From a virus, in the IMG/VR virus record IMGVR_UViG_3300011008_000009, positions 32,001 through 96,000 of that record: DNA of 64,000 bases. One strand, given 5' to 3'. Below the pieces are notes generated by a model. That model made no database searches. It saw only the letters and a list, made by a program, of their open reading frames with translations, and was not told the DNA's origin. A program made the translations under genes and the position numbers. The stretch's first letter is position 1. Each line of letters starts with the position of its first letter. Positions 2 to 32,001 of the stretch are shown here, piece by piece.

Positions 2-1117
2 AATAAATCTATAAGTCACTCATATGTAAGATTTAATCATTATGGATTATACTTTGTGAAAGATAGTGACCAATTTGACCAAGACTTGTTAACAAAGACA
101 AGTGGCTCTGGTGGAAAAATTACAGCAGACGCACTTAATTTCATTATGAATAACGCAGACGTGGCTGTTACTTATAATGGTTTTGCTATTAATGGTCTTT
201 CGGGAAAGGTTAGATTTACTTCTGCTGACGGTATTGTAATGAAAGACGATTCTGATGAAGAGGTTATTAGATTAGGTCATATTACAAATACTGAATTAGA
301 CGATGATATCAAGGACTTCTGGGGCTTATATGCGCGTGGAGCGTATATAGAAGGTAAAATATATACCAATAAGGTAATCCAAAGAACTGTTGATTTAGGA
401 GTAACAGGTAGAGTTAAAGTCGATGATATAAGTCGTAGTATGCTAAACGGTGGTAGACTAGAAATATCTAAGACTGTAGTTGAGTCCGGATCGGTTGACG
501 TAAGCAATAGAGAGCTAAAGAAGATTACCTCTTTTGGCGCCGCCCTGTATAATATGGGAACGACCGATGATGATTTATCAGTAAATGACCAATTAAGTAA
601 TTTAGGTAGTACAGTCTATGTCCATAAAGACGGATGCTTCTGGAGTGTAAGTAGTTATAATGATACTGCGAACACATATAATGCTAAATTATTATATGTT
701 CGTAAACAAATGGGCGAGTATGATGAAGATACTTTTGTAATAAAGTGTAATCATTTCAGAAATGACGCTCAAGCAGTAACCAATGCTGTGGCTCCGCAAA
801 CTCAATCCGATATTAAAATTAAGAAGAATATTGCTACTATTTCCGATAATTATTTAGACTTCATAGATAAACTGCAAGTAAAAACTTACAACCTTAAAAC
901 TCAAGACGACTCGGCGCCGAAACACATCGGACTAATCGCTCAAGAGGTTCAACAGGCTTTAGCTGATTGTGGCTTAACTGATAATGGCTTAGTATCACAA
1001 ATGCCCGATGATACCCTTACAATTAATTATACCGAACTTCTTACTCTCGCAATAGCAAAAATTCAGCAATTAGAAAAGCGTATAACAGAATTAGAAAATA
1101 AAAAGCCCGGAGTTTAA
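2..1117 (+). CDS. tail fibre/spike, C-terminal part, with an S74-type intramolecular chaperone (self-cleaving) domain; 5' end lies outside the window
   Basis: The frame is open from nt 2, with no stop upstream of the GTG at 56. The C-terminus SDIKIKKNI...KHIGLIAQEVQQAL...LTINYTELLTLAIAKIQQLEKRITELE fits the endosialidase-chaperone (peptidase S74) pattern. Confidence 0.75.
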   Translation, partial: NKSISHSYVRFNHYGLYFVKDSDQFDQDLLTKTSGSGGKITADALNFIMNNADVAVTYNGFAINGLSGKVRFTSADGIVMKDDSDEEVIRLGHITNTELDDDIKDFWGLYARGAYIEGKIYTNKVIQRTVDLGVTGRVKVDDISRSMLNGGRLEISKTVVESGSVDVSNRELKKITSFGAALYNMGTTDDDLSVNDQLSNLGSTVYVHKDGCFWSVSSYNDTANTYNAKLLYVRKQMGEYDEDTFVIKCNHFRNDAQAVTNAVAPQTQSDIKIKKNIATISDNYLDFIDKLQVKTYNLKTQDDSAPKHIGLIAQEVQQALADCGLTDNGLVSQMPDDTLTINYTELLTLAIAKIQQLEKRITELENKKPGV

Positions 1118-2241: not shown

Positions 2242-3070
2242 TGACGGTACTGGTTCCGCTAGAGCCGAAACCATTTTCTCCTCTAGTATTATCTGCTTCG
2301 GCGCTTACATCGCCTTCTTCAAAAATACCAATAGGCACTTCATTAAACACCATCTGAGCTATTCTATCTCCCTTAGCAATTACATAAGGTGCATCTCCAT
2401 AGTTATCAATAAGCACCTTAATTTCACCGCGATAGTTACTATCTATTGTTCCAGGAGCATTTGCTACTCTAAGTTTTGTTTTTGCACTCATTCCACTTCT
2501 CGGACGTATTTGTGCTTCATAACCCTTGGGTATCTTTAGCACAATACCAGTACCGACAGCTACTGTTTCATTAGGATTTACTGTACACGCTTCAACAGCA
2601 TAGATATCGGCGCCTGCATCACCAGCGTGAGCATAGGTAGGAACAATAGCATCTTCCGAGAGCTTCTTATACGCTACATTTATTCGTTTAGAGGGGTCTT
2701 CCTGATAGTCTAGAATGCCCTTATATGAAAGCTGCATTAATTTAAGAAGGAACTCTTTCTTTTGGTCTGAAATTTCGAAGCTATTAATAACTTCTATCAT
2801 TCCATCGTAGCCCTTTTTCTCTCTTTCGTAGTCTATGTCAGAATAAGAAGCTAAATGCTGACTTACTGTATTATGGTAAGCTGTGGAATTGAAAACTTGA
2901 TCCATAGAACCATATAGACCACTAGCAAGGTCATTAAACTCATTATCGTCCAGAGCGATTATTGCTGAAACTATACCACCAAGGTCTCCATCATTTAAAG
3001 CCTTTAACAGGTCCTGCTTAGGATCTGGAACACCATTTTTCTCAGCCATTTTAATTTTATTATTTGTCAT
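2234..3070 (-). CDS. dut: dUTPase with an N-terminal extension of about 130 aa of unknown function
   Basis: The C-terminal half carries the dUTPase motifs AGDAGADIYA, RPRSGMS, GTIDSNYRGEI, GDRIAQMVF and RGENGFGSSG. Confidence 0.9.
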   Translation of the reverse strand: MTNNKIKMAEKNGVPDPKQDLLKALNDGDLGGIVSAIIALDDNEFNDLASGLYGSMDQVFNSTAYHNTVSQHLASYSDIDYEREKKGYDGMIEVINSFEISDQKKEFLLKLMQLSYKGILDYQEDPSKRINVAYKKLSEDAIVPTYAHAGDAGADIYAVEACTVNPNETVAVGTGIVLKIPKGYEAQIRPRSGMSAKTKLRVANAPGTIDSNYRGEIKVLIDNYGDAPYVIAKGDRIAQMVFNEVPIGIFEEGDVSAEADNTRGENGFGSSGTSTVNE

Positions 3071-5689: not shown

Positions 5690-5921
5690 TGTTATCGCCT
5701 CCAATATTCTTTTTATGACAATAAATACATTCGTTATTTTCGTATTTATGTGGACATAATTGTCGTAGCTGAGTAATCTCTGCTTGCAAATTTTGCATTT
5801 CTGGATTAAGTACAAAAGTGTTACAAGACCAATTTGAAGTTTTGCAATTTTCAAATCTTAATTTAAGGTCTGCATACTCTTTTTCAATCCACTCTGTTGT
5901 AATGTTTTCTGGCTTGTTCAT
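5682..5921 (-). CDS. small Cys-rich hypothetical protein
   Basis: 79-aa ORF whose stop overlaps the ClpP-like start. Cys/His pairs CPHK...CIYCH. Confidence 0.5.
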   Translation of the reverse strand: MNKPENITTEWIEKEYADLKLRFENCKTSNWSCNTFVLNPEMQNLQAEITQLRQLCPHKYENNECIYCHKKNIGGDNNE

Positions 5922-6915
5922 CTTGGTACCTCACTGATAATGTGTAAGTTAATAACTGATAAAGCTCCGGGTCTTTAGCCTTTATTTTTACCATTAATTC
6001 ATATTTGTGTTTGTTATTAAAGTATGTATGAAATATGTCGGCATCTTCCTTTAGTGTATAATTGCTGCCGTACCACTTCTTACCACAATCAAAAAGAAAT
6101 TTATAAGTTACATTATTTATCGGAGCGACTTTTAAGTTAGGCTTCGGGTTCATAAATTTTCCCTTTTGCGCCATTCTCAAAAATTTCTTTAGCTCTAAAT
6201 TGTAGTTTTCTACCGAGCATTCTCCAAAAATAAAAGAAAATTTTTGTCTTTGTGCGGCAGGAAAATCCAATATTTTACTTATATCTTTTTCAATACAGTT
6301 TTTAACTATAAAGTTGATATTACCTATCGCACGACTATAAACCTTAGCATCAACCCAGCGTTTGGCTTGGGTGTAACTGTGAATAGTAACAGGATAATAA
6401 AAGGATATTTTTTTATTTAGCTTAATTATTTCTTCATAATCGCTATCTGTGATATCTGTATCGTAAAAAGTAATTTCTTGGTTAGCCGAGCTAATAAAGC
6501 GCTTGTTGCTGCTTTCGTGTAGGCGAATGAAATCAGACTTAATTAATTTATTTCTTAAGTAGCTATATCTACTGTCGGATAATAGTTTCCTTACTATCGG
6601 CGCATCATAGATAGTTGTATCAGGATAGATTGCTCGAATTTCTTTTGGAACGGCGCAATACTTATTATAAAAATAACTACCTATCAAAGTTACTTTTTCG
6701 CTCTTAATTAAGTGATCTATATAAATTTGCTTTTCGCCATTATAGATTACATATAGCATACTATACCATTCGATATCTTCTTTTTTCTCTGAGGGACAAA
6801 GTTTAACTTTATCCCCCATTTGTTTATGATATCCAGAGATTTGCATAACATCTAAATTAGCTTCGTAGCTTTGCGGTGTATATAACAAATCTAAGTCTAT
6901 AATTCCAACTACCAT
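5884..6915 (-). CDS. hypothetical protein
   Basis: 343-aa ORF. Its start abuts the dnaE stop. No motif recognised. Confidence 0.65.
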   Translation of the reverse strand: MVVGIIDLDLLYTPQSYEANLDVMQISGYHKQMGDKVKLCPSEKKEDIEWYSMLYVIYNGEKQIYIDHLIKSEKVTLIGSYFYNKYCAVPKEIRAIYPDTTIYDAPIVRKLLSDSRYSYLRNKLIKSDFIRLHESSNKRFISSANQEITFYDTDITDSDYEEIIKLNKKISFYYPVTIHSYTQAKRWVDAKVYSRAIGNINFIVKNCIEKDISKILDFPAAQRQKFSFIFGECSVENYNLELKKFLRMAQKGKFMNPKPNLKVAPINNVTYKFLFDCGKKWYGSNYTLKEDADIFHTYFNNKHKYELMVKIKAKDPELYQLLTYTLSVRYQDEQARKHYNRVD

Positions 6916-8428
6916 TAGGCTTCTGCACGCTCCGTTACTGTAGTTAATAAACCTTTATCATCTATATTTGTTATCAATTCAACTAGATGATAAGGAGTAC
7001 TTTTATATTTCTTAGGTATGAAGTTATTCTCTCTTCTAATACCCGTGAATATAATTTTATTTCCTCGACTAAACCAAGACTTTTCAATAACCTTTTTATG
7101 CCCGTCCGTACTCATAACGCTAATCTGCTTATCAAAGATACTAAACTGATTAGCATATATCTTAACATCTACAACTCCTGTAGTTGTTAAAATAGTGACT
7201 GTGTTCTTATTTTTATTCTTATCAATTACAGTTCCTGCTATTCTTGTAATTCGATAAATCGGAATATCTCTTCCCTTTATGGGTATGGTGTTTACTACTT
7301 CAGCGGTCTCCGGCATAGATTTGAAATCTTCCAGTTCATAAATTATCTTAGGTACTTTCTTAAGTTCGTGATCGTGGAAGTAGAAGTTTACACTATCCAT
7401 TTCCCATTTACTAATATTGCCCAAAGCATATTTGTTCCAGAAGTCGTCAAACAGCTCCTTATTGAGACCAATTAACAAATCATTCAAATGACTTTTAATA
7501 TAATCACTCAAAGGCTGCATTAACTTTTTATACATCTTATCCCACATAGCGCTAGGAATATATCCTATGGGTTCATCATTTTCATACTCTATGCTAACAT
7601 TTTCAGTATCAAAATTACTTTCGTAAAAACTAAAGCAATATAGGTCAAGATAATATTTATCTGTTAATCCCTTATCCTTGCTTATCTTTTTGATAAACTT
7701 GTTAAAGTTAAATACTTTTACATTAAAAGAAAGTTCTTCGGGGAACAATTTCTTTTCTATAAGTTTCTGCGCATTTCTCATATTGAGAGTAGTTTTCGCG
7801 CCACATATGGAAAGAATATAATCTTTCATTATTTCCGTTCTTTCGCCAAAGCTATCAAAAGCTCCACTTTTAATTAAGTTTACCATTTGCGGCTTATTGA
7901 CTTTTACCTTACACAAAAAGTCATTAATAGAGTTATAAGGTCTATTTCTTATGATATCTTTTGCAAGGTCTTTGCCTATCTTTAATATTCCTTTAATTCC
8001 ATAGTATATCTTATTTTCTGATTCTACTGGAGTAAAGGTAAAACTAGACTTATTAATATCTGGTAAAGCTATTGTTATTCCAGCGGACTGCATACTTCCG
8101 ATTGCTGTAGCAATCTTTCCGTAGTCAATTTTATTCGGTTTCTTTTTCTTGACCACGGTGCCATTCTCTTGTGGATTATCTTCTTCAGTATCCAGGAGTT
8201 CGTCCTCCTCTTCCTGTAGTTCTTCAGAGCAAAATACAGATTCAGTTGAACTCTCTGATTCGTTGTCTTGAGAATCATTTTCTTCATTTTCTTCTTCTCC
8301 GTCCGCAGCGCCACTATTAACTATTAAGTTTGCTGTGTTCCAATAAATTACTGGATACTTACAAGCAAGTTCCATTTCTTGAAGTCCGACAATTGAGTAG
8401 GCAAGGGTATGTGACTGATTGAAGCCAT
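6915..8428 (-). CDS. dnaE: DNA polymerase III alpha (DnaE-type), exon 3
   Basis: The frame is open upstream of the track ATG and reads (Y)GFNQSHTLAYSIVGLQEMELACKYPVIYW, the conserved YGFNKSH...YP motif region. A C-terminal OB-like part follows. The junction is inferred. Confidence 0.8.
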
Positions 8429-9652
8429 CAAGGTAGATGTTATTTTCATAACTGACTACTACCTTAGACTATATCTTCATCGTTTTTAGAGTCAAATAGC
8501 GGCTCTACCAACCGATATTTTCGACTAAGACAGATTTTACAATCTTTATACAAAATGTTAGCTAAACATTTTGCAGTTTTTTGTTTTGTAGTTTGACAAA
8601 CATATCCATTATTTTTCTTATCTTTTACATTTATTTTATTAGTAAACGAGGCTTCTATAGGAAGAAAAGAATTGCAAAAAGTTTTAAAATCCTCACAAGT
8701 GGATTGATAATTTGAAACAAAACCTATGTGATAATAATTATTTTTATCTATAGAAATCCAGCCGTCTCCATCTATCAAACCTCTTATAAAATGAGGTCGC
8801 ACAGCTAACGATAACTCTGGTAAATGTTTTGTTTTATGTGTTTTATCTGGCACTATACCATATTTAGCCAAACTATTACATAAATGTTCGCTTATCATTC
8901 GGATAGAACAAACTTCTGTATTACCTCTATTTCGATAAGAAATTTTACTATTAAGATTTAATTCCTTTTTAAATCTCTCTAATAATTCTCTGTCTTTAGC
9001 TTGTATTTCTATAGTTAATTGATGGTTATAAACGTTTCCATCTGCAAAAACAAATCCTAAAAAATAAGCCTTTTCTTCTGTATCAATATTATCAAAAAAT
9101 TCATCATTCTGTTCTTTATTGAGCTTAGGTTTATTAATTATTTTTATATTATTTTTAACTAAAACCTTATGGATTGTTTCGGTACAACAATTATATTTTC
9201 GAGCTATTTCGTTTTGAAACAAATCTGTAGTTGTATATAATTTAATTATTTCTTCTTCATCTTTTTTATTTAATATTCTAGGACTTTTTTTACTACGAAT
9301 TTCAATATTATTATCTTTTAATATTTTACTTATAGAATTTGCTCTGCAATGTAAAATTTGTGTAGCTATATATGAAATTGAAAATTCATCTTCGGTATAT
9401 AATTTTATGATATTTTTAATATCATTTTCTGTCCATTCTCTTCTTTTCGGCATTTTATCACCTCCTTTTAATTTAATGGTAGATAAACGATGCGTGGCAC
9501 TTGGGATTTCTCCTACTCTATACTAGATAGTCGTTGAACCTTCCGTTAGCTAAACGGCTTGGCTGCTGATAAGCATATCATATAGACTTAGCTTTCCAGC
9601 AATTCACCACGTTATTCAAATAATCTTACGATTATAGGGAGCAATTTTATTT
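8429..9652 (-). mobile_element. group I intron (dnaE intron 2) carrying a LAGLIDADG homing endonuclease
   Basis: 5' splice site after U (GGG U|AA) and 3' splice site after G (CUUG|AU). Joining gives SRG-Y-GFNQSH. The RNA contains GGUUCAACGACUAUC (R-like element, about 9526-9540) and CUAAGGUAGUAGUCAG (S-like element) near the 3' end. Confidence 0.75.
8464..9453 (-). CDS. LAGLIDADG homing endonuclease with repeated N-terminal HTH modules
   Basis: YFLGFVFADGNV and FIRGLIDGDGWI motifs. Intron-encoded, with GGAGG before the ATG. Confidence 0.85.
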   Translation of the reverse strand: MPKRREWTENDIKNIIKLYTEDEFSISYIATQILHCRANSISKILKDNNIEIRSKKSPRILNKKDEEEIIKLYTTTDLFQNEIARKYNCCTETIHKVLVKNNIKIINKPKLNKEQNDEFFDNIDTEEKAYFLGFVFADGNVYNHQLTIEIQAKDRELLERFKKELNLNSKISYRNRGNTEVCSIRMISEHLCNSLAKYGIVPDKTHKTKHLPELSLAVRPHFIRGLIDGDGWISIDKNNYYHIGFVSNYQSTCEDFKTFCNSFLPIEASFTNKINVKDKKNNGYVCQTTKQKTAKCLANILYKDCKICLSRKYRLVEPLFDSKNDEDIV

Positions 9653-10319
9653 ACCCACGGCTCATAGCTATCAGCACGTTCCAAACGTACTTACACAATT
9701 TCTCATTACAATTCTTTTGCTTGGTTACTTCAAAAAATTCTTTAGTTAATGCATCATATTCTTTAGGATTTTTCTTGGCAATAGACTTTCTTAACTTATC
9801 TGCCCAGCTTAACGAAAAGCCGCCGAGTTCGGGTAACTGAACCAACTGCATAAATTGTTCCTGCGCAATACACAATCCATAAGATATTCCAACTATAGGT
9901 TTAAGGATTTCTTTCTCCTTCTCTCCTAAGCCGTATTGCTTCAATTCTTTATCCCATTCCATTTCATTAACTTTAAATCTCGCTAGCTTATTTAATGGCA
10001 TTTCCGCGCCCTTTTCGGGAGCCATAAGTCTTAATGCAGAGTTAAGAATTGCCAAGTCATCGACTGAGGTCGGCTTCATTAAGGCGATACCCTTAATTCC
10101 ACTATCTTTTTCCATTTGAAAGAAAGACCATATTTCGTGGTTCCAAAGTCTTTGCCAACTATTTATATTATCTCTTTCTATTTTATAAACGCCGACTATA
10201 CTTTCATATGTTTCTCTAAGAGAACCTTTATTTTCTACTCTGCCCGCTTCAAGAAGCAAATCAATACAAACTCTCATTTTATCAAGAGCTTCGATTGAGA
10301 GTAGATCCCACTTGATCAG
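9653..10319 (-). CDS. dnaE: DNA polymerase III alpha (DnaE-type), exon 2
   Basis: The frame is open upstream of the track ATG and reads LIKWDLLSIEALD (equivalent to [13 protein letters not shown]). It ends ...IAMSRG plus 1 nt. Confidence 0.75.
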
Positions 10320-11547
10320 CGGTTTGTCATATATTTCTATATGTCCTGACTATCTTTTACCTTATAGGAACTCCGTTTCGAACTACGTATCAATAGTAGC
10401 CCTACTCCCAGTCTCACCCGGGATAGTCGATACACACATATTTTAGAGTAAATTTTTCCAAGTTGTGCCATTTATGACAGCCCTTATAGAAGTGGGTGTC
10501 ACTTGAGGGTAGGCTTTATAAATTTCAGAATTAGAAATGCCTTCTTTGTGCATTTCTCTTATTTTTAATACATCTTGAGTAGTTAATTTCGCTCGACCGT
10601 TATATTGTCCAGCTCTACGAAGACTAGAATGAATTTTTCTGTTTTCTTCTGTAAAAACTTCTGGCATTACTAGTTTATATCTATTACCATAATAAACATT
10701 CCAAAATGTCATTTCGTCTTTGTATGCCCATTTATAATCTTCGTAAACATCCTTCCAATACTCACCTTTTGCATATCTTTCTCTTAATTTTACCACGTCA
10801 TCATATTCGAGAGGACCGTTAGTGAATTGACCAGCAAACTCTCTATTAAAAGGATATTCTTCAGTGGTAGTTGTGAGATTTTTGTAAGTTATATGATGAT
10901 ATATTTTTCTAAAAGTTTCATATTTAATTTTTTCAGAAAATTGTTCATATAACAAGCAAATAGGAATATTTCGATGGTCTAAGATGTATTGTGCTTCTTC
11001 TTCTGTTAGATTAGCATTATTATTATCAGCTCCAGCTTTACCTTTATAAGTAGGAAAATATTTTCCACCAGGGTCAACATTATATCCATTAGGGACTAAG
11101 CTGTTAAACTCTTTAATATATTGTTCTTCTAGCACAATTGCTTCTTCAATTGAAAGGTTTCTATGTAGCACCTTAAATTCAAAGTTATCCTTTCCATATT
11201 TATGGATAGCTTCTTGAATTACTTGTCGATGTTTAAGGTCTTTAGGATAACTTTTTTCGTTTCCCCATTTTTTTTCTACATTGTTAGTAATACCAATGTA
11301 TATTTTTTGATTAATTAAATTTGTTATTTTATATACATACATATTAACACCTCGCACTTTATTACCCTCATAATAAAGTGGGATTTATGTAACGTCTACT
11401 CTAAAATTTTGGCGCGGGATTACCATATCACTGGGATTATGACTTAGGCTTCCCCGCCGCTATATAGGTACTGTTTACTTACGCTTTCGCTGCCTATATA
11501 ACGCTGCCGATAAGCAGTTAGAAGTTTACGAGCCTAACATTTCGTCA
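10320..11547 (-). mobile_element. group I intron (dnaE intron 1) carrying a GIY-YIG homing endonuclease
   Basis: Exon 1 ends ...GAU GUG AGU|, after U. The intron ends ...ACAAACCG|, after G. The RNA has GUAUCGACUAUCCC (about 10418-10431) and AAAGAUAGUCAGG (about 10345-10357), which can form P7. Confidence 0.7.
10443..11342 (-). CDS. GIY-YIG homing endonuclease
   Basis: MYVYKITNLINQKIYIGITNN...YNVDPGG. GAGGTG lies 5 nt before this ATG. The C-terminus has an HTH-like KIREMHKEGISNSEIYK. Confidence 0.85.
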   Translation of the reverse strand: MYVYKITNLINQKIYIGITNNVEKKWGNEKSYPKDLKHRQVIQEAIHKYGKDNFEFKVLHRNLSIEEAIVLEEQYIKEFNSLVPNGYNVDPGGKYFPTYKGKAGADNNNANLTEEEAQYILDHRNIPICLLYEQFSEKIKYETFRKIYHHITYKNLTTTTEEYPFNREFAGQFTNGPLEYDDVVKLRERYAKGEYWKDVYEDYKWAYKDEMTFWNVYYGNRYKLVMPEVFTEENRKIHSSLRRAGQYNGRAKLTTQDVLKIREMHKEGISNSEIYKAYPQVTPTSIRAVINGTTWKNLL

Positions 11548-13482
11548 ACTCACATCTTCGCACTGGTGTAGATCGAACTGAGTAATAATATCTCCACTTC
11601 TTGTTCTCATAAGTGCAGAATACTCACTAAACGGCTCTTCTACCAATATTACTCCACCTGCATGAGAGCCTACTCCATTAACTAATCCTTCAATTCGCTG
11701 AGCAACTTCCCATACTTTAGGATAATCTTCTGTCATAAGTTTAACAAAAGTTCTGTCGGGTTCTATACCATTTTCTTCATCACCATAAAAGGTCTGACTA
11801 AGAGTTCTGGCAATACCACGTTCAGCTTTTATAAAAGAAGCCAAGTAACTAGCTTCATCTATATCAATTCCTAATCCTCTGCAAGCTGTAAGTATTGCAC
11901 TCTTACTAGCCTCGGTTTTAAGAGTTTGAACTTTACTAATACGGATATCGTTCCAATCCTCTGTATCGTCAGAACTTTTGCGAGAAGCATTATACTTTTC
12001 GCCTAATGCCTTCAACACCGACTGGCGCTTATTTCCTTGAATATCTATATCAATATCCAATACAGATGCACGCTCAGGGTTCAAAAATCTCCAGGGGAAT
12101 GTTGATGTTCTTTCTCTTAACGGGTTAATCTGCGTGATGTCAAGCAAGTAAAGAAGAACAAAACCTACACCAGAACCTCTTCCCGCGCCAACCAGTGTGT
12201 CACCCTCATTCCAAGCTATTTTTACTAATTCACTCGTCTGAAGAAGATAACCTGACCACCGAGTGTTCATCTTTTCCGAAGATACCCACAACGAATTAAG
12301 ACATACATCAATTGCTTTATACATCTCTTCGTTCGCGCGCTCAATCGGGTCTTTCTCAATTGCTTCAACTATTCTACGAGCAAGGTGTCTATCACTATCG
12401 TACTGCGATGTGGCAAACTGCTTTAATAGCTTTATATCGCTGTACTTATCTATAAGTTCCATATCAGGCTCTCTCGTGTCTGACGGAACATAAGGTATGT
12501 GCAAAGGCTTTGTTAAATCATAGTTTTCACACATATCATATATAATTTTTGTGTTTGCAAGTCCACGACTTACCGCTTCGGCGCCGATATTGCTATCCAT
12601 ATATTCGTGAATTTCTTCTGTACTCATAAGATAAGTACTCGCGTAGAAATCCATTACTTCTCTTTCGCCGTCTTGCGATTTGAGAAATGCTTCGTGTATG
12701 GGGCGCTCTTCCTTTTTAAGATAATGTGAGTCGGTAGTTATTATATAAGGTATATACATCTTAAATGTACCTAAGTGTACTAACACCTTATTAACAAACT
12801 GCTGTTCTTCACTTGTCTTTGACGGTTGAAGCTCTAAAAAGAAATTTTCCTTTCCGAATATGGACTGAATATTTTCTATCCAAGAATACAATTCATTCCA
12901 AAATTCACCGCTCCACTCTGGGTCATTTGTTATTTCTGCTCTATGTTTTAATATCCAGCCGTCTATCCACGAGCCAAGACAAGCACTCGAAGCGATTACG
13001 TGACCAGGGTTCGCACCGATTATTTCTTTTAAGTCACTATAATAAGTTGGAACTCTTGTCATTCGTGCCGTTTCAAAACTATTGTTCCAAGCACGAGTTG
13101 ATAACTGACGCAACTGCTTATTTCCTATTTCATCTTTAGCTAATAGAATAAAGTGATAATACTTATCTTCGCCCTTGATGAAGTTCTCTTTACATAGTCC
13201 GTTACGACATAAATAAATTTCGTTTCCAAGTATCAGCTTAAAATTCTTAATACGTTCTTTTTCTTCACCTGTCGCGGCGTTCTTTAGTCTTTTCTGATAA
13301 TGTTTCTGCGCCATTAGGAAACCGCCAATAGTCTCGTGGTCTGTAATGGCTACTCCGTTATGTCCAAGTTCAATTGCATAATCTATAAGATTATCAACCT
13401 TATTAATACAATCCCTTAGACGATAATTACTGTGCTCGGTATGATTATGACAATCTACGAAAAATTCGGGTGTCAATATCAT
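11548..13482 (-). CDS. dnaE: DNA polymerase III alpha (DnaE-type), exon 1 (PHP domain and palm)
   Basis: PHP motif DCHNHTEHSNY...VAITDHE. Ends ...ITQFDLHQCEDVS, equivalent to [13 protein letters not shown] of E. coli DnaE. Confidence 0.85.
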
Positions 13483-13506
13483 CGCCTCCTTTTTCCTTAT
13501 ATTAAT

Positions 13507-13535
13507 ATTATATCATATTTTTTAAAAAAAGTCAA
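13507..13535 (-). promoter_or_regulatory. sigma70/sigmaA-type promoter upstream of dnaE
   Basis: Minus strand reads TTGACT-17 nt (ending TATGA)-TATAAT. Confidence 0.7.
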
Positions 13536-13558
13536 GAGTAGACTTATAGCCTACTCTT
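13534..13558 (-). terminator. hairpin terminator after the recJ-like gene, fused to the dnaE promoter -35
   Basis: aagagtag-9 nt-ctactctt is an 8-bp stem starting at the stop codon. On the minus-strand RNA it is followed by GACUUUUUUU, which is the -35 box plus a T-run. Confidence 0.6.
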
Positions 13559-15320
13559 AGAAATCAAATATTGTACCACCAATTTCGTAGTCTTTTATTA
13601 TAACTTGTGGACTTGTTGTTCCATTCCATTCGTTAATTGCTCCTTCCCCTATGATAGTAATAATAAACTCGTCTCCTGCTTGTCTTAGCTTTTCAATGTC
13701 TTGAGATGCAAAGAACTTAATATAAGTAATACCATTTACTTTAAAACGGAGTGTATCTGAACGGGCGCCGCACACTTGAATATCACTTTGGTTGAGAGAT
13801 AGACCAGTGACGGCTATTAAAGGTGCGTCATTTTTCTGACCCCAAATTCGGTCATCTTTATATACATCAAATATAAAATCACTAATAGTTTCATCTGTAC
13901 TAGGAGCAGCATATTCTACCTCATAGAAATTATCTGAAAAATTAACATCTTTTAGTTTTTCATTTGCATAGTTAAGGAACTTACCAACATTTTTATCGGG
14001 AATACTTACGCCAAAAGCATTTTCGTGACCTTGTGCATATTCAAAGTAGCCACTTTCAATTAAGAAAGAACGTAAATTTTTAAATTCTCCCTTTCCGTCA
14101 TTGCGCGCACTACCACGAAGAAAGCCTTCGTCGTTCTTTCTAACTATCAGCACTGGCTTTTTGTACTTATCAGCCAGCTTCATAGCAACTAAGCCGTTTA
14201 AGGTAGTGGGAAAACTAAAAGTATCATCTAATATTGCAATAATTACAGTATTATCTATTTCTCCCGTACCTTGCAAAAACATATCAATACTATCCATAGC
14301 TCTGGTAACGGAAGTATCTTGTCTATTTTTCGCGTTAGTTCCTTCACGCGCCATTTGATCTGCTAAACGTTCTGTTTCACCTTTTGCTCCACGCTTGGTG
14401 CTAGGAACTACTTTATCGCCGTCTATAAAGGCTCCAAACATTCTCTCTTTTTCATTTGGAGTTCCAACTCTAACGATAGAGTTTATTAATGGAGCAATAA
14501 AGAAACTTACTCCAGTGGGAGAGATGTTATTAGAACGTTTTAGGGAAAAGGATTGTTTACTAACGATAGCTTTTAGAAAGGCATTGTAGATAATATGCAA
14601 TCCATAATAAGAGAAAGCTCTATTCTCAATCTCTCTCATATCCATACAGTCGCCTATAATACCGACCGCCGCCAAATCCATAAGTGTATTGACTATGGGT
14701 GGATTGAAGTCTTCAGATGCCCAATCTGTAATCATTTCCTCATAATACTTACAGAACTGCCAGGTAACCCCTGCTCCAGAAAGAGCCTTATTGGTATAAT
14801 TCTTAGACAACTGATTATTAATGATAACAGTATGCTCGTTATTGAAATAGTAATCTTCATCTATATCATCAACCAAGTGGTGGTCGAGTATTAATATATC
14901 GGCGCCGGCATCGTTGAGAGCCTTTTGCTGCTCAAAATCATTGCTACCAGCATCGGGTACGATAATCAATCCATAATTTTTATTTATTAAGTTATCTATT
15001 TGATCCTCTAAGCCGTGTTGCTTGCCTTCGTGAATATAATAATCTATATCAATTTCATAATAGCTTTTTAAAAAATTATATATAATGGCGGCGCTAGTAT
15101 AGCCATCGCAGTCACAATCTACAATAAGAGCAATCTTAGAATGATTATGAATGTGTTTTTCTAATAGCTTATATCCTCTCTCAATATTATCTAAATTAAG
15201 AGGTGGCTCGATGTCGCTCATTAAAGGGTTGGCATATCTTTCGGGGTCTTCAATTCCCCTTTCTTTTAGTATTGTATTTAAATAATCTTGCTTAATTAAC
15301 GATTTGACCTTATATTGCAT
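13557..15320 (-). CDS. DHH-family phosphoesterase, RecJ-like ssDNA exonuclease
   Basis: DHH motifs VDCDCDGYTS, VPDAGSND and ILILDHH. Confidence 0.75.
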   Translation of the reverse strand: MQYKVKSLIKQDYLNTILKERGIEDPERYANPLMSDIEPPLNLDNIERGYKLLEKHIHNHSKIALIVDCDCDGYTSAAIIYNFLKSYYEIDIDYYIHEGKQHGLEDQIDNLINKNYGLIIVPDAGSNDFEQQKALNDAGADILILDHHLVDDIDEDYYFNNEHTVIINNQLSKNYTNKALSGAGVTWQFCKYYEEMITDWASEDFNPPIVNTLMDLAAVGIIGDCMDMREIENRAFSYYGLHIIYNAFLKAIVSKQSFSLKRSNNISPTGVSFFIAPLINSIVRVGTPNEKERMFGAFIDGDKVVPSTKRGAKGETERLADQMAREGTNAKNRQDTSVTRAMDSIDMFLQGTGEIDNTVIIAILDDTFSFPTTLNGLVAMKLADKYKKPVLIVRKNDEGFLRGSARNDGKGEFKNLRSFLIESGYFEYAQGHENAFGVSIPDKNVGKFLNYANEKLKDVNFSDNFYEVEYAAPSTDETISDFIFDVYKDDRIWGQKNDAPLIAVTGLSLNQSDIQVCGARSDTLRFKVNGITYIKFFASQDIEKLRQAGDEFIITIIGEGAINEWNGTTSPQVIIKDYEIGGTIFDF

Positions 15321-26071: not shown

Positions 26072-26253
26072 TTATTCCTTTATTTCTGAAAAGTCAATAT
26101 TATTAAACACGTATTCAGTTCTCGGTTCTACTCTACTGCCCATTAGCTGTTCAAGCATTTCAATACCTTCTTCCGAATACTCAATACGTTCAAGACGCTG
26201 ATATTCAGGACTAAACATTGATTTTCGCGCCGTTGCGGCAGGCAATTCACCTA
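26072..26253 (-). CDS. type II topoisomerase B subunit, exon 3 (not in the ORF track)
   Basis: My translation is (L)GELPAATARKSMFSPEYQRLERIEYSEEGIEMLEQLMGSRVEPRTEYVFNNIDFSEIKE*. This corresponds to the GyrB C-terminal KGLGEM...LMG..VE.R..FI region. Confidence 0.8.
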
Positions 26254-27212
26254 CGTATTACTCAATTATTACTAATTGTACTGACCATTTCTTCACATAT
26301 AGTGCATACCGTTTCCAATTGCGTATCAATAGCAATCGTACTCTCCAACAACGGAGATGGTCGATACAGGTTAATTATTCTTTTCTAAGTTCTTAATCCT
26401 TTTAAGATTAGTAGCTTTAAAGCTGTCGTAACTGGAATATATATTTTTAAAGTCTTCGTAAATGGTTCTTAAACTTTCACCATTTGCATATCTTAATCTA
26501 ATGCTTTCAAACTGTTGGTCACTAATTTTTGCTTTTGGGTTCTTTTCTCCTGGGTTGCTATAACTTTTAGAATTATTTCTATGCCACTCTCTATTTTCTT
26601 GTGTATTTAATTCGGGTAAAATATTTTTCCAAGTTTGCCAAGTATATACTTTTTTAAAACCGGTTTTTTCTATTTTATCCTGATATTCATAATACATTTC
26701 TCTTGTAGAGATAGTCTTGGATGCCCACAATAATCTTATTTCTATAACATCTTTTTCTGTTAATTTGTGCTTAGGATGTTTTTCGCCGTGAGTATCAACT
26801 AAATCTCCACCCGGAGTAGCATTATATCCTTTTTTAAAAGTATTGTAATAATTTATCCAATAAATTTCTTTTTCTTTTAGCTCTTCTGGTTTACATTCTT
26901 CTAAAACTTCCCATTTGAAATTTTCTAAACCATATTTTCTGAACGCTTGATACAATACTTTATCATACTCTTTATTATCACTATCAAAAGCTCTTTCTCT
27001 ATGAGATTTCCAGCGATTTTCAATATTTATAGATAACCCAATATAAGCATTATTATTAATTAAATTTGTAATTTTGTATATACCAGTCATACATTTCCTC
27101 CAAGAATAATTCTTCCCACGAGATTATCCAACTTGGGACTACCCTCGTTAGCAGTCAATGAAGACTACCCCGCCGATAAGCGGAAAAGTATGTAAGGACC
27201 AGACTACCTCTT
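26254..27212 (-). mobile_element. group I intron (topo-II B intron 2) carrying a GIY-YIG homing endonuclease
   Basis: Exon 2 ends AAA GGA U|, after U. The intron ends ...GUAAUACG|, after G. Joining gives RAKG-L-GELP, the KGLGE motif. GUAUCGACCAU and AGAAAUGGUCAG elements flank the 3' core. Confidence 0.75.
26371..27090 (-). CDS. GIY-YIG homing endonuclease
   Basis: MTGIYKITNLINNNAYIGLS...RWKSH...YNATPGG. GGAGG precedes the ATG. Confidence 0.85.
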   Translation of the reverse strand: MTGIYKITNLINNNAYIGLSINIENRWKSHRERAFDSDNKEYDKVLYQAFRKYGLENFKWEVLEECKPEELKEKEIYWINYYNTFKKGYNATPGGDLVDTHGEKHPKHKLTEKDVIEIRLLWASKTISTREMYYEYQDKIEKTGFKKVYTWQTWKNILPELNTQENREWHRNNSKSYSNPGEKNPKAKISDQQFESIRLRYANGESLRTIYEDFKNIYSSYDSFKATNLKRIKNLEKNN

Positions 27213-27411
27213 ATCCTTTTGCTCTCGTTACCTCTCCCTTTACTGTTGAACGAACCTTATTAAACTCCTCATCAGTAAAGTAGTAACTTTCTACTCCTTT
27301 ATTTTCTACTATATAAAGAGGAGATTTAAGCCAATACAGTCTACCTTCTTTTATAAAGTCTGGCGCAAGATACCATAAGTTTGCCATAATTAACAATCCT
27401 ATGTGACTTCC
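27213..27411 (-). CDS. type II topoisomerase B subunit, exon 2
   Basis: GSHIGLLIMANLWYL...LYWLKSPLY corresponds to GyrB DGSHIRTLLLTFFYR...YIAQPPLY. Confidence 0.8.
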
Positions 27412-28446
27412 CACGTTACCCATTATTTCTAATGGCGCTGACTATCTGTTACTCGTTAAAATGAGAATACTCTTTCCAATCACGTACCAATAGTGACTGT
27501 ACTTCCCTTCCGGGGAATAGTCGATACAGGCTTCATTTATTAACCCAAACCTTTTGTTTTTTCTTGTATATTGGCAGGTCTTTATAGGTGCGACCCCACA
27601 ATATTTGTTGTAATGTATTGTAACTGCATCTATCTTTAAAATCATTATAGATACTTCTTGCATCTTCATTAACGTACCGTTCTCGCATTTTTAAGACTTC
27701 TTCACTTGTAAATTTTGCGCTATCTGAATTAGAGCCATCTGTTGCGTGATATTTATAGAAATTTTTATTTTCCTCGGTATAAACTTCCATTTTAATATCT
27801 TTCCAAGTGGTTCCGTCCCAAATGGATGCGAAGCTGCTAAAACTTATTCTGTCTTGAAATTGTTTATATACTTCACGGCGTCGCATATGGTTGCCATAAC
27901 ACTCTCTAATATAAGCCACATCTTCATTAGTGAGTTTCGTTCTTCCATTATTTTCACCACGACTATTTCCGCCGCCTTCATTGCAATTATAACCAAATCC
28001 TTTATAAGTATTATAATATGCAATCCAGTATTTTTCTCGTTCATCTAATTGTTCTAATGAACATTCTTCTATAATTTCAAAATCAAAAGCATCAACGCCA
28101 TATTTCTTAATGGCTATTTCAATCGGTATATCAATTTTGTTTTTATGTTCGGAAAATCTTCTCTCTATATCATTACTTTGACCAATATATGATTTTCCAT
28201 TTTCTTTCTTAGTTATTTTGTATATGCCTATCATTGCGGCACCTCCACAATTATTAGGCTTGGGTCAATTCTGATTCCCACGGGATCTGCATGCCCACGA
28301 GGGGTTTAGCTTCTCTTATCACCATAACCTTTCGGTTTAGTTGCCCGTTAGCCTTCTATAATAATGTAGGGAATATGTAAACCCTCTCTACATTTTTCAG
28401 AAGACCCCGCTGGTTAGCGGTAAAGTATTTACGGACAGAGTTACTT
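27412..28446 (-). mobile_element. group I intron (topo-II B intron 1) carrying a GIY-YIG homing endonuclease
   Basis: Exon 1 ends GAU UCG GAU|, after U. The intron ends ...GGUAACGUG|, after G. Joining gives TDADSD-GSHI, the Toprim DxDxDGxHI motif. GUAUCGACUAUUCC and ACAGAUAGUCAG elements are present. Confidence 0.8.
27533..28234 (-). CDS. GIY-YIG homing endonuclease
   Basis: MIGIYKITKKENGKSYIGQSNDIERRFSEH...YNCNEGG. GGAGGTG precedes the ATG. Confidence 0.85.
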   Translation of the reverse strand: MIGIYKITKKENGKSYIGQSNDIERRFSEHKNKIDIPIEIAIKKYGVDAFDFEIIEECSLEQLDEREKYWIAYYNTYKGFGYNCNEGGGNSRGENNGRTKLTNEDVAYIRECYGNHMRRREVYKQFQDRISFSSFASIWDGTTWKDIKMEVYTEENKNFYKYHATDGSNSDSAKFTSEEVLKMRERYVNEDARSIYNDFKDRCSYNTLQQILWGRTYKDLPIYKKKQKVWVNK

Positions 28447-29937
28447 ATCCGAATCTGCGTCAGTTGCTATGGCAATTTTACCATAATGAAGTTTTTTGCT
28501 ATCATACTTTCCAGGCAGTATGTTCATGGCGCTTAACAGTAACTTTATCTCTTCGTTCTTAAATATTTTTTCTTCATCATTGGACAACGAATTAATCATC
28601 TTACCACGAATTGCCATAAGACCATACTTAGTTATATCTCTTGCCCGCGACAGTCCGCCTAACGCCGAGTCTCCCTCACAGATAAGTAAGGTACTGTCCT
28701 GTCCAAGAAACTCTGCGTCTTTCAGCTTATCGCTAGCAAACACTTTTTTCTTCTGATTTTTCTCGATATCCTTTGTAGCATCAAGCACAGCCTGTCTTGC
28801 CTTTTCAGCCGCCTTTTCAGCTTTCTGAATCTTATTCATCATTTCGATGATACTATTAAATTCACCACTATGTTTAAGCGCAAATTCATCAAGTCCAGAC
28901 TTAAAAGCCGTACTAGCTAAAGTTCTAAGATTAGGATTATTTATTTTAGACTTGGTCTGATTAGCAAAAGAGGGGTTAACTACTTTGCAGTTTATCGCAT
29001 AAACCAGACCCTTACGAATGATTTCGGGATCGAACTCCTTCTTGGACAAACGCTTCATAGAGGTTGTAAAAGTAGTTTTCGCGCCTGTAATGGGAGAGCC
29101 ACCCTCGCTGCAAAAAAGTCCGTTGACAAATACATAGCTGGCACCCGGACCATCTGTCCACATAAAAGCTACTTCTACTTCATCAGTATCATCTTTTGCT
29201 GTTGTAATGATTGGCGCAGACATCAATGGTTTTTTGACATTGTCCTTAATAAAATCGCCTATACCATTTTCGGAATAAAACTCTACTGTTTTTCCAGTAT
29301 TAACCAAACCAACTTTAAAATGTACACCTTTATTAAGATAAGAAATATTTCTTATTTCATTACATATTCTATCATAAGAAAAGCCGTCAGTCATTAATTT
29401 AAATACTTCGGGGTCTGGAATAAACTCTACCTTTGTGCCAGTATGGGCGCTTGTATTGGGTATTTCTTCATAATTTACGAGTATTCCTTTTTCAAAGGTA
29501 GCAGTAGCCTGCTTCTTTTCTCGATAGGAAGTAACGACAAAATTTTTAGAAGACATACATACCGCGGTTCCGCCTATACCATTCAATCCAGAAGAATTTT
29601 TGTATGCATTTTTGTCAAATTTTCCTCCAGTATGACTTTCGGTATAAATAGACACCAGAATATTTCTTCCGTCTTTAATACCAAAAGGTACTCCTCGTCC
29701 GTCGTCTATAATTGTAATTTTATTGTTTTGTTCATCAACAGCTATGGTTATTAAATTACCATATCCTGCCAATGCTTCATCTGTAGAATTGTTGACTATT
29801 TCTTTAAATGCTTGATAAATACCATCGGTATCATCAGAACCGAGATACATCTGTATCCTTGAACGCATAGCTTCACGCGTTTCTAAGTGTCTTATGCTAT
29901 CTATACCATAATTATCCATTCGCATTCTCCTTTTCAC
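28447..29937 (-). CDS. type II topoisomerase B subunit, exon 1 (GHKL ATPase, transducer, start of Toprim)
   Basis: EIVNNSTDEA, IDDGRGVP, GLNGIGGTA, then CEGDSALGG...IAIATDADSD. Confidence 0.85.
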
Positions 29938-31999: not shown

Positions 32000-32001
32000 A
32001 C

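Follow-up and report, generated by a model that had tools for sequence, protein, structure and literature searches.

A DnaE-type polymerase gene in a viral genome, very probably split by two endonuclease-encoding group I introns

Group I introns with homing endonucleases are classic inhabitants of phage replication genes. Self-splicing introns with or without such endonucleases occupy conserved motifs of family A/B replicative polymerases in Bacillus phages SPO1 and Bastille and in Felixounavirus, and the td intron of T4, with I-TevI, resides in a thymidylate synthase gene. In SPbeta, genes of replication and nucleotide metabolism house introns and inteins; bnrdE and bnrdF carry introns together with an intein (PMC8270828, citing Lazarevic 1998 and 2001). 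Here, we analyzed a stretch of 64,000 nucleotides (nt) of viral DNA (positions 32,001 to 96,000 of IMG/VR record IMGVR_UViG_3300011008_000009; hereafter the window), in which a gene for a DnaE/YorL-type polymerase is very probably split by two mobile group I introns that would be spliced out to give one enzyme of 1,371 amino acids (aa). The selfish elements are of a known kind, and what appears to be new is their host, a family C polymerase rather than one of family A/B. No description was found in the literature on introns in phage dnaE, yorL or Pol III alpha, and the SPbeta review mentions introns just for bnrdE/F (PMC8270828). An initial annotation, made from the sequence of the window alone, had called the arrangement unusual; this holds insofar as no describing paper was found but not as regards occurrence, as interrupted homologues exist in GenBank phages and in metagenomes.

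The minus strand from 13482 to 6915 contains five consecutive open reading frames (ORFs), comprising three polymerase pieces with two endonuclease ORFs between them. Pfam assigned PHP and DNA_pol3_alpha to the first polymerase piece (13482..11545), DNA_pol3_finger to the second (10277..9651) and HHH_6 to the third (8375..6915). PF02811, PF07733, PF17657 and PF14579 thereby follow each other over three exons in the order PHP, palm, finger and HhH. Joining 13482..11548, 10319..9653 and 8428..6915 yields a coding sequence of 4,116 nt that is in frame, has a single terminal stop and encodes 1,371 aa. The initial annotation had read the three ORFs as collinear pieces of one Pol III alpha with a product of about 1,370 aa, and both statements agree with the Pfam order and the single open coding sequence. 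Over 99-100% of its length, the joined protein is ~38% identical to its closest named relatives, polymerases of the SPbeta YorL type (tblastn, GenBank phages); this similarity is full-length, and SPbeta yorL itself is uninterrupted. The motifs LDIDID, KWD and YGFNQSH are present and all align with homologues; the catalytic residues are presumably those corresponding to D401, D403 and D555 of Escherichia coli DnaE. These data support the reading of 13482..6915 as one DnaE/YorL-type (family C) replicative polymerase gene in three exons, with the following parts:

11548..13482, minus strand, exon 1: 645 codons; PHP and Pol III alpha palm/NTPase domain; ends GAU GUG AGU
10320..11547, minus strand, intron 1: 1,228 nt; td-like group IA, assigned from empty sites (L009, L010 and L011) and structure/covariation
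10443..11357, minus strand, GIY-YIG ORF in loop L6 of intron 1
9653..10319, minus strand, exon 2: 667 nt; finger domain; starts CUG AUC AAG (LIK WDLL)
8429..9652, minus strand, intron 2: 1,224 nt; canonical group IA-type, assigned from empty sites (L009 and L011) and structure
8464..9453, minus strand, LAGLIDADG ORF in loop L8 of intron 2: 329 aa
6915..8428, minus strand, exon 3: 1,514 nt; HHH_6 domain and C-terminal region

Junction 1 (11548|10319) is in phase 0 and reads CEDVS|LIKWDLLSIEALD, the latter being the LIKWDLL side, while junction 2 (9653|8428) rebuilds a tyrosine from T|AT in SRG-Y-GFNQSH. Exon 2 ends with CGU GGG U, its last U being the first base of the Tyr868 codon, and exon 3 resumes with AU GGC UUC AAU CAG UCA CAU (Y-GFNQSH). 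The joined RNA would read GAUGUGAGU|CUGAUCAAG at junction 1 and CGUGGGU|AUGGCUUC at junction 2. Both 5' exons end with U (11548 and 9653) and both introns with G (10320 and 8429), just as had been proposed. In an alignment with uninterrupted homologues, a check that the initial annotation had suggested, no gap appeared at either junction against any of the four used (SPbeta YorL, Enterococcus VRE9_4, Enterococcus Planchet and Enterocloster PMBT24).

Alleles lacking the inserts were also identified. A large protein database contained an uninterrupted protein of 1,372 aa (P0001) with 98% identity to the joined polymerase. Its contig, L009, is a metagenomic allele (93% DNA identity) without both inserts that aligns to 14911..11548, 10318..9652 and 8428..6915, with a 1-nt ambiguity at each of the block edges (11548|10318 and 9652|8428); its intron-less sequence reads GAAGATGTTAGTATGATTAAGTGG at the first insertion site (site B) and CGTGGCTATGGCTTTAAT at the second (site C). 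Both inserts are likewise missing from L011 (~78% identical), and L010 lacks intron 1. We take these empty-site alleles as proof that exactly 1,228 and 1,224 nt have been inserted or deleted. The two junctions, including the 1+2 split of the tyrosine codon, had been predicted from the window at these very positions and, because the intron-less allele breaks at exactly the same coordinates, the prediction goes beyond chance. The exon bases that would pair with the intron guides differ between alleles, being GUGAGU|CUGA and GGGU in the intron-bearing one, and GUUAGU AUGA and GGCU or GGAU in intron-less ones. Near site B, identity to L009 falls to 83-88% within 30-60 nt, compared to 93% overall, a divergence that might hint at co-conversion or target immunity.

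Intron 1 lies between the codons of S645 and L646, four codons ahead of the conserved KWD Asp motif. It starts with an in-frame UGA and ends with an omega-G at 10320. The following elements, all on the minus strand, make up its predicted ribozyme:

11358..11547, 5' ribozyme half (from structure and covariation)
11533..11528 with 11553..11548, P1: internal guide sequence (IGS) GCUCGU with exon GUGAGU; U•G at the splice site
11537..11534, P10: UUAG, 4 bp with CUGA of the 3' exon
11526..11521, P3 5' strand: AACUUC
11517..11504, extra hairpin 1: CUGCU/GGCAG
11500..11461, extra hairpin 2: UAUAUAGG/CCUAUAUA, with a GAAA-capped tip at 11490..11483
11457..11452 / 11419..11414, P4: GCGGGG/UCCCGC
11448..11423, P5: 11-nt receptor CCUAAG...UAUGG
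11407..11397, P6 5' strand
10320..10450, 3' ribozyme half
10450..10440, P6 3' strand; the 11-bp P6 encloses the GIY-YIG ORF
10428..10423 with 10353..10348, P7: GACUAU with AUAGUC
3' half, P7.1: CCCGG/CUGGG
3' half, P7.2: GGGCUAC/GUAGUUC, with the conserved loop UAUUGAUAC at 10395..10387
10374..10369, P3 3' strand: GGAGUU, preceded by a GAAAC linker
10368..10360, P8, followed by J8/7
10343..10328, P9: CAUAUA-GAAA-UAUAUG; L9 is a GAAA tetraloop

Pair counts over five homologous introns at the identical site (window, L112/L073, L146, L154 and L156) gave 99.3% paired cells. Compensatory changes were seen in 21 of 80 pairs, against at most 3 in slid controls and 0/500 shuffles; they include two in P1 (exon versus IGS), two in P3 and four in P6. 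Across both introns, slid controls had 33-50% of cells paired and no more than four compensatory pairs; these comparisons are to be read with the structure having been derived from one of the aligned sequences.

The same core occurs far more widely. A signature of this intron family, GTATCGACTATNC-N15-45-CTATTGATACG, was present in >118 IMG/VR stretches. Both halves were recovered for 23 members; in this set, six of the seven P7.2 positions show covariation, and in 20 of the 23 the six bases after GAAAN have a 6/6 complement directly 5' of the first hairpin. P7 is nearly invariant, with one compensatory variant, GACCAU/AUGGUC, in the second gyrB intron described below. Family members (L096-L175) place the P3 5' strand directly after P1 and have two hairpins between P3 and P4, the second often GAAA-capped. 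Two elements of our by-eye model were replaced on the basis of covariation, as AGUA-GGGC-UACU gave way to GGGCUAC/GUAGUUC as P7.2, and P3, sought beside P4, moved to AACUUC right after P1. The window has further matches to AAGATATAGTC (17009+, 19726-, 29794-, 37535+ and 55081+), which were set aside with a total near chance expectation; the two inspected, 17009+ and 29794-, lie within coding sequence. Intron 1 may represent an abundant td-like IA variant with the order P1-P3-hairpin-hairpin-P4 and the conserved UAUUGAUAC. Its abundance, non-textbook helix order and poor capture by RF00028 make this family a moderately interesting by-product of the analysis.

From P4 onward, intron 1 resembles the T4 td intron (group IA2), with shared elements that presumably comprise an ORF in L6, P7 GACUAUC, P7.1, P7.2, the GAAAC linker, P3', P8, J8/7 and P7'. 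The 5' halves presumably differ, the td order being P1-P2-P3-UAA-P4. A further distinction is the P7.2 loop, where UAUUGAUAC is a signature of the intron 1 family and not of td. Both introns also have a stop codon in frame close to the 5' splice site, and the likeness extends to the endonuclease, whereas the host genes, for thymidylate synthase and a DnaE-type polymerase, differ.

Intron 2 lies inside the tyrosine codon (T|AT) of the GYGFNQSH motif and ends with an omega-G at 8429. Its predicted elements, again all on the minus strand, are as follows:

9454..9652, 5' ribozyme part
9642..9639 with 9656..9653, P1: IGS GCUC with exon GGGU; U•G at the splice site
9635..9620, P2: AUAAUC-GUAA-GAUUAU
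9611..9607 with 9497..9493, P3: CGUGG with CCACG
9601..9597 / 9568..9564, P4: UGCUG/CAGCA
9592..9573, P5: 11-nt receptor GCUAAG...UAUGC
9563..9538, P6/P6a
9532..9527, P7 5' strand: GACUAU, pairing with AUAGUC at 8472..8467
9513..9504, P7.1
9492..9485 and 8485..8478, P8: 5' strand CAUCGUUU and 3' strand AAACGAUG, enclosing the LAGLIDADG ORF
9468..9459, ribosome-binding site (RBS) of the LAGLIDADG ORF: AAAGGAGGUG
8429..8485, 3' ribozyme part
8477..8467, J8/7 and P7 3' strand (S element): AAGAUAUAGUC
8465..8459 / 8436..8430, P9: AAGGUAG/CUACCUU
8452..8439, P9a: GUUAU-GAAA-AUAAC, GAAA-capped

Four introns at the same site (window and L218-L220) had 97.5% of cells paired and compensatory changes in 20 of 60 pairs, compared to at most 4 in slid controls and 0/500 shuffles; the covarying helices are P1 (one pair), P2, P3, P6a, P8, P9 and P9a. 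Folding, also suggested by the initial annotation, gave a minimum free energy structure of the ORF-deleted intron 2 (RNAfold) in which P2, P3, P4, P5, P6/P6a, P7.1, P8 and P9 were recovered (z = -2.6). In addition, introns of other phage genes share 75-84% identity with nt 40-127 of intron 2, among them, at ~79%, a Felixounavirus polymerase intron (L013). Three ORF-less relatives were retrieved and scored on RF00028, with 63.8 bits for the Felixounavirus polymerase intron, 91 bits for one in a Schitoviridae RNA polymerase and 99.7 bits for one in a Staphylococcus Silviavirus recombinase. When intron 2 was aligned with distant Rfam-positive introns (MAFFT, four sequences), the alignment was good over P3-P7 alone and was left out of the pair counts.

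The covariation-backed folds and the homology of intron 2 to Rfam-validated introns uphold the earlier proposal of two group I introns with GIY-YIG and LAGLIDADG genes. Of the core elements proposed at the same time, the R-like ones are present and the S element of intron 1 is GAUAGUC (10354..10348), as stated. For intron 2, however, the proposed GUAGUC, 12 nt downstream, was rejected as P7', and the actual S element is AAGAUAUAGUC with AUAGUC at 8472..8467 as the P7 3' strand.

Both endonuclease genes occupy peripheral loops outside the catalytic core (L6 within P6 and L8 within P8), and both are free-standing and open with their own RBS. The GIY-YIG ORF matched its Pfam family at 1.3e-9 and the I-TevI catalytic domain (1MK0) at E=4e-7. 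While the ORF listing starts it at GTG 11357, its true start is likely ATG 11342 (MYVYKITN), with GAGGUG ahead; the stop at 10445..10443 lies inside the P6 3' strand. The LAGLIDADG ORF comprises two LAGLIDADG domains and N-terminal helix-turn-helix repeats (Pfam LAGLIDADG_3 and Hom_end; Protein Data Bank entry 2DCH, E=5.6e-6). At its end the ORF runs into the P8 3' strand, J8/7 and the P7 3' strand, with the result that the S element shares bases with its last codons. A large protein search returned dozens of clusters of relatives at ~60% identity, and the three examined (L218-L220) are located between finger and HHH_6 exons of DnaE-type genes, at the same nucleotide; in IMG/VR, peptide patterns detected no close relatives of this ORF. 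The protein is also 32% identical to an 'intron-encoded putative endonuclease' (P0224) of Staphylococcus phage 812 (812/K), in which host gene and intron differ, whereas all examined ~60%-identical relatives reside in DnaE-type genes.

Several points weigh against two functional group I introns. Intron 2 has a weak P10, and intron 1 deviates from the textbook order in its 5' half, with the P3 5' strand right behind P1 and hairpins before P4. The window gave no match to RF00028 at the gathering threshold, and none appeared at E<=10 on 8200..11800, where the scan returned chance matches alone (a CRISPR repeat, a snoRNA and an EBV RNA). L165, a relative of intron 1 without an ORF, matched RF00028 from end to end but with 35 bits (E=1.3e-5) fell short of the gathering score, which is 50, and no match was obtained for three further ORF-less members of the family. 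We attribute the silence on the window to the ORFs of ~0.9-1.0 kb in L6 and L8, which the 253-position model cannot span. Inserted loci in Enterococcus EF1, a Staphylococcus SPbeta-like phage and Enterocloster CB473P1 also went unmatched by Rfam and, as the Staphylococcus insert is largely ORF-less, RF00028 is insensitive to these introns. The Intron_gpI scan proposed in the initial annotation was negative on the raw sequence because of the ORF insertions and alone would have misled.

The gene calls, with five separate ORFs here and dnaE_1/dnaE_2 in the GenBank annotation of homologous loci, would also suit a fractured gene, in which free-standing endonucleases have split the polymerase into three polypeptides that assemble non-covalently or through split inteins, without RNA splicing. 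Fractured DnaE genes that have split inteins as well as free-standing endonucleases are known from metagenomes (PMC2677866). We nevertheless consider this extremely unlikely here, since exons 2 and 3 have neither a start codon nor an RBS (Shine-Dalgarno sequence) at the junctions, and the first ATG comes 14 codons into exon 2 (10277) and 17 codons into exon 3 (8375), so that separate translation would lose the KWDLL Asp and the GFNQSH motif. Junction 2 moreover cuts through a codon, Pfam found no Hint/intein domain, and the non-coding flanks are covarying group I helices, including the exon-IGS pairing. That the inserts are themselves inteins or group II introns is vanishingly improbable, even though inteins, too, can contain LAGLIDADG and Hom_end domains, DnaE genes are well known to host inteins (PMC2677866) and one relative (L220) appears to have an intein elsewhere in its polymerase gene. 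Stops stand at both 5' junctions, and the endonuclease ORFs are not joined in frame to the exons and have their own RBS. No match to Hint, Intein_splicing, reverse transcriptase, maturase or group II RNA was obtained from Pfam or Rfam, and neither a continuous in-frame ORF with Hint motifs nor a domain V/VI structure is present.

A different concern is that the introns are decayed and splice poorly, with the polymerase a pseudogene in a defective prophage or assembly. This would suit the weak P10 of intron 2 and its P1 of just four contiguous pairs. It is very unlikely, given that the core helices and tetraloop/receptor pairs are all intact, both endonuclease ORFs are open and the exon frames stay open over 4.1 kb. 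In homologous introns at these sites, compensatory changes have preserved the pairing, implying selection, and the gyrB gene of the same genome is arranged likewise.

If two active group I introns are present, as we favor, the polymerase gene would be transcribed into a single pre-mRNA, in which each intron would adopt the fold of a group I ribozyme, comprising P1 with its U•G pair, a P3-P9 core and the guanosine-binding helix P7. In both, the GAAA tetraloop of L9 could dock on the 11-nt receptor in P5. Excision would proceed by two transesterifications, started by exogenous guanosine and completed by the terminal G, and the ligated mRNA would encode the single 1,371-aa polymerase. In mixed infections, each endonuclease would be expected to cut the intron-less allele, with repair copying the intron in. 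The sequences themselves establish where exactly the inserts begin and end, that the reading frame is restored, that the inserts are polymorphic in presence, that the group I structures covary and which domains the endonucleases have; catalytic self-splicing, endonuclease specificity and homing we infer.

A survey of relatives of this polymerase revealed five distinct insertion sites, all at or beside presumed catalytic motifs (residue numbers are those of the window's protein):

F466 codon, site A': occupied in L073 and L083
~474/475, site A, ahead of LDIDID: occupied in EF1, the Staphylococcus SPbeta-like phage and CB473P1; empty in the window
645/646, site B, ahead of KWD: occupied in the window and four contigs
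Tyr868 codon, site C: occupied in the window, EF1 and L218-L220
870/871, site C': occupied in L010, L052, L054 and probably L093

Most relatives are intact, with 74 of 80 in IMG/VR uninterrupted. Intron 1 recurs at site B in L112, L146, L154 and L156, and intron 2 at site C in L218-L220. Among described phage genomes, Enterococcus EF1/EF5, the Staphylococcus SPbeta-like phage and Enterocloster CB473P1 (GenBank) contain the same polymerase family with intron-like inserts and are annotated just as dnaE_1/dnaE_2 or, in EF1, 'Phage intron'. They differ from the window in leaving site B unused and in having endonucleases that are HNH or unassigned. The insert of EF1 occupies exactly the position of intron 2 (GGGG T|AT), and its core belongs to the intron 1 family. 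Possibly, although we lean slightly toward doubt, DnaE/YorL-type polymerases of large Firmicute phages constitute an undescribed major refuge of group I introns with at least five sites.

Site C also invites comparison with the split DnaE intein of cyanobacteria (Ssp and Npu), for which native exteins AEY|CFNK are described in Npu (PMC3759424). The motif is the same as RGY|GFNQ here; judged by the motif alone, the Tyr868 and 870/871 sites would flank the exact intein position, and intron 2 would be 2 nt from the point equivalent to the intein insertion. The cyanobacterial element acts by protein splicing between two unlinked genes, in contrast to the RNA splicing within one gene proposed here.

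Some of these relatives show peculiarities of their own. The site C insert of CB473P1 (L004 4860..6330) has a clear S element, AAGATATAGTCC, but no G ahead of exon resumption (CAATTCAAT|TCCTTCTCC), and the upstream frame stays open for ten more codons. In L220 (1..3302; ENA ERZ28657033 scaffold_38), an Intein_splicing/LAGLIDADG match in the upstream exon accompanies a LAGLIDADG intron at site C, and this polymerase gene may hold an intein and an intron together. In exon 3 of the window, directly past the GFNQSH region, ~8300..8120 (aa ~895-950) encodes a strongly acidic stretch of low complexity, GAADGEEENEENDSQDNESESSTESVFCSEELQEEEDELLDTEEDNPQENG. Relatives lack this stretch or have it in variable form, and the tblastn high-scoring segment pairs of L071 and L093 are interrupted at query residues 908-969.

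The window itself is a replication module with genes for a RecJ-like protein, a DnaB-like helicase, gyrB and gyrA, and relatives of the polymerase were found in metagenome-assembled genomes (MAGs) from goat rumen, yak rumen and rabbit gut. It probably belongs to a large SPbeta-like phage whose host is a Firmicute of the gut or rumen, a phage lineage related to that of SPbeta. A gyrB-like gene at 26072..29937 on the minus strand is interrupted by another two members of the intron 1 family, each with a GIY-YIG gene:

29937..28447, minus strand, gyrB exon 1
28446..27412, minus strand, gyrB intron A, with a GIY-YIG ORF at 28234..27533
27411..27213, minus strand, gyrB exon 2
27212..26254, minus strand, gyrB intron B, with a GIY-YIG ORF at 27090..26371 and the compensatory P7 GACCAU/AUGGUC
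26253..26072, minus strand, gyrB exon 3

The spliced gyrB product would be 623 aa long and restores IATDADSDGSHI (IATDADSD|GSHI) and RAKG|LGEL. Together with those of the polymerase gene, the window thus holds four introns and four endonuclease genes. In-frame stops coincide exactly with 5' splice sites in intron 1 (UGA, 11547..11545), intron 2 (U|AA, 9653..9651) and gyrB intron B (U|AA, 27213..27211), such that ribosomes on unspliced RNA would halt ahead of the ribozyme.

These arrangements bear on annotation. Gene callers cut such polymerases into 'dnaE_1/dnaE_2/hypothetical' and Rfam is silent, a combination that leaves the polymerase and gyrase B of these phages mis-annotated; with the exact splice coordinates, correct protein models can be built. 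The list of replication genes colonized by group I introns would extend to family C polymerases, with a single polymerase family offering several independent insertion hot spots at active-site motifs. At the GFNQSH motif, where intron 2 and the DnaE split intein would be 2 nt apart, introns and inteins would converge on one conserved stretch of DNA. Both endonucleases, GIY-YIG and LAGLIDADG, are candidates for site-specific nucleases, the intron-less alleles being their defined natural targets, and the intron 1 family, as a large and covariation-rich set, could improve group I covariance models.

Further members of the intron 1 family were encountered elsewhere. In EF1 (L001 4001..4784) and Enterococcus VRE9_3 (L015 1785..2611), an intron with a GIY-YIG gene interrupts a gene without annotation close to the one for the RecJ-like protein, and the 3' core of this intron is 77-80% identical to that of the dnaE intron 1. 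A 9.5-kb sequence, L147 (IMGVR_UViG_3300021255_001258), contains three group I cores at 105..181, 2677..2906 and 5801..5846; two were found by Rfam (47.9 and 26.4 bits), and the third, of the intron 1 family, was missed. Lastly, a 21-kb contig with this polymerase type (L215; JAFRFD010000123.1) was binned in a Methanobrevibacter MAG from goat ileum, which probably reflects the mis-binning of a phage contig and not a virus of archaea.

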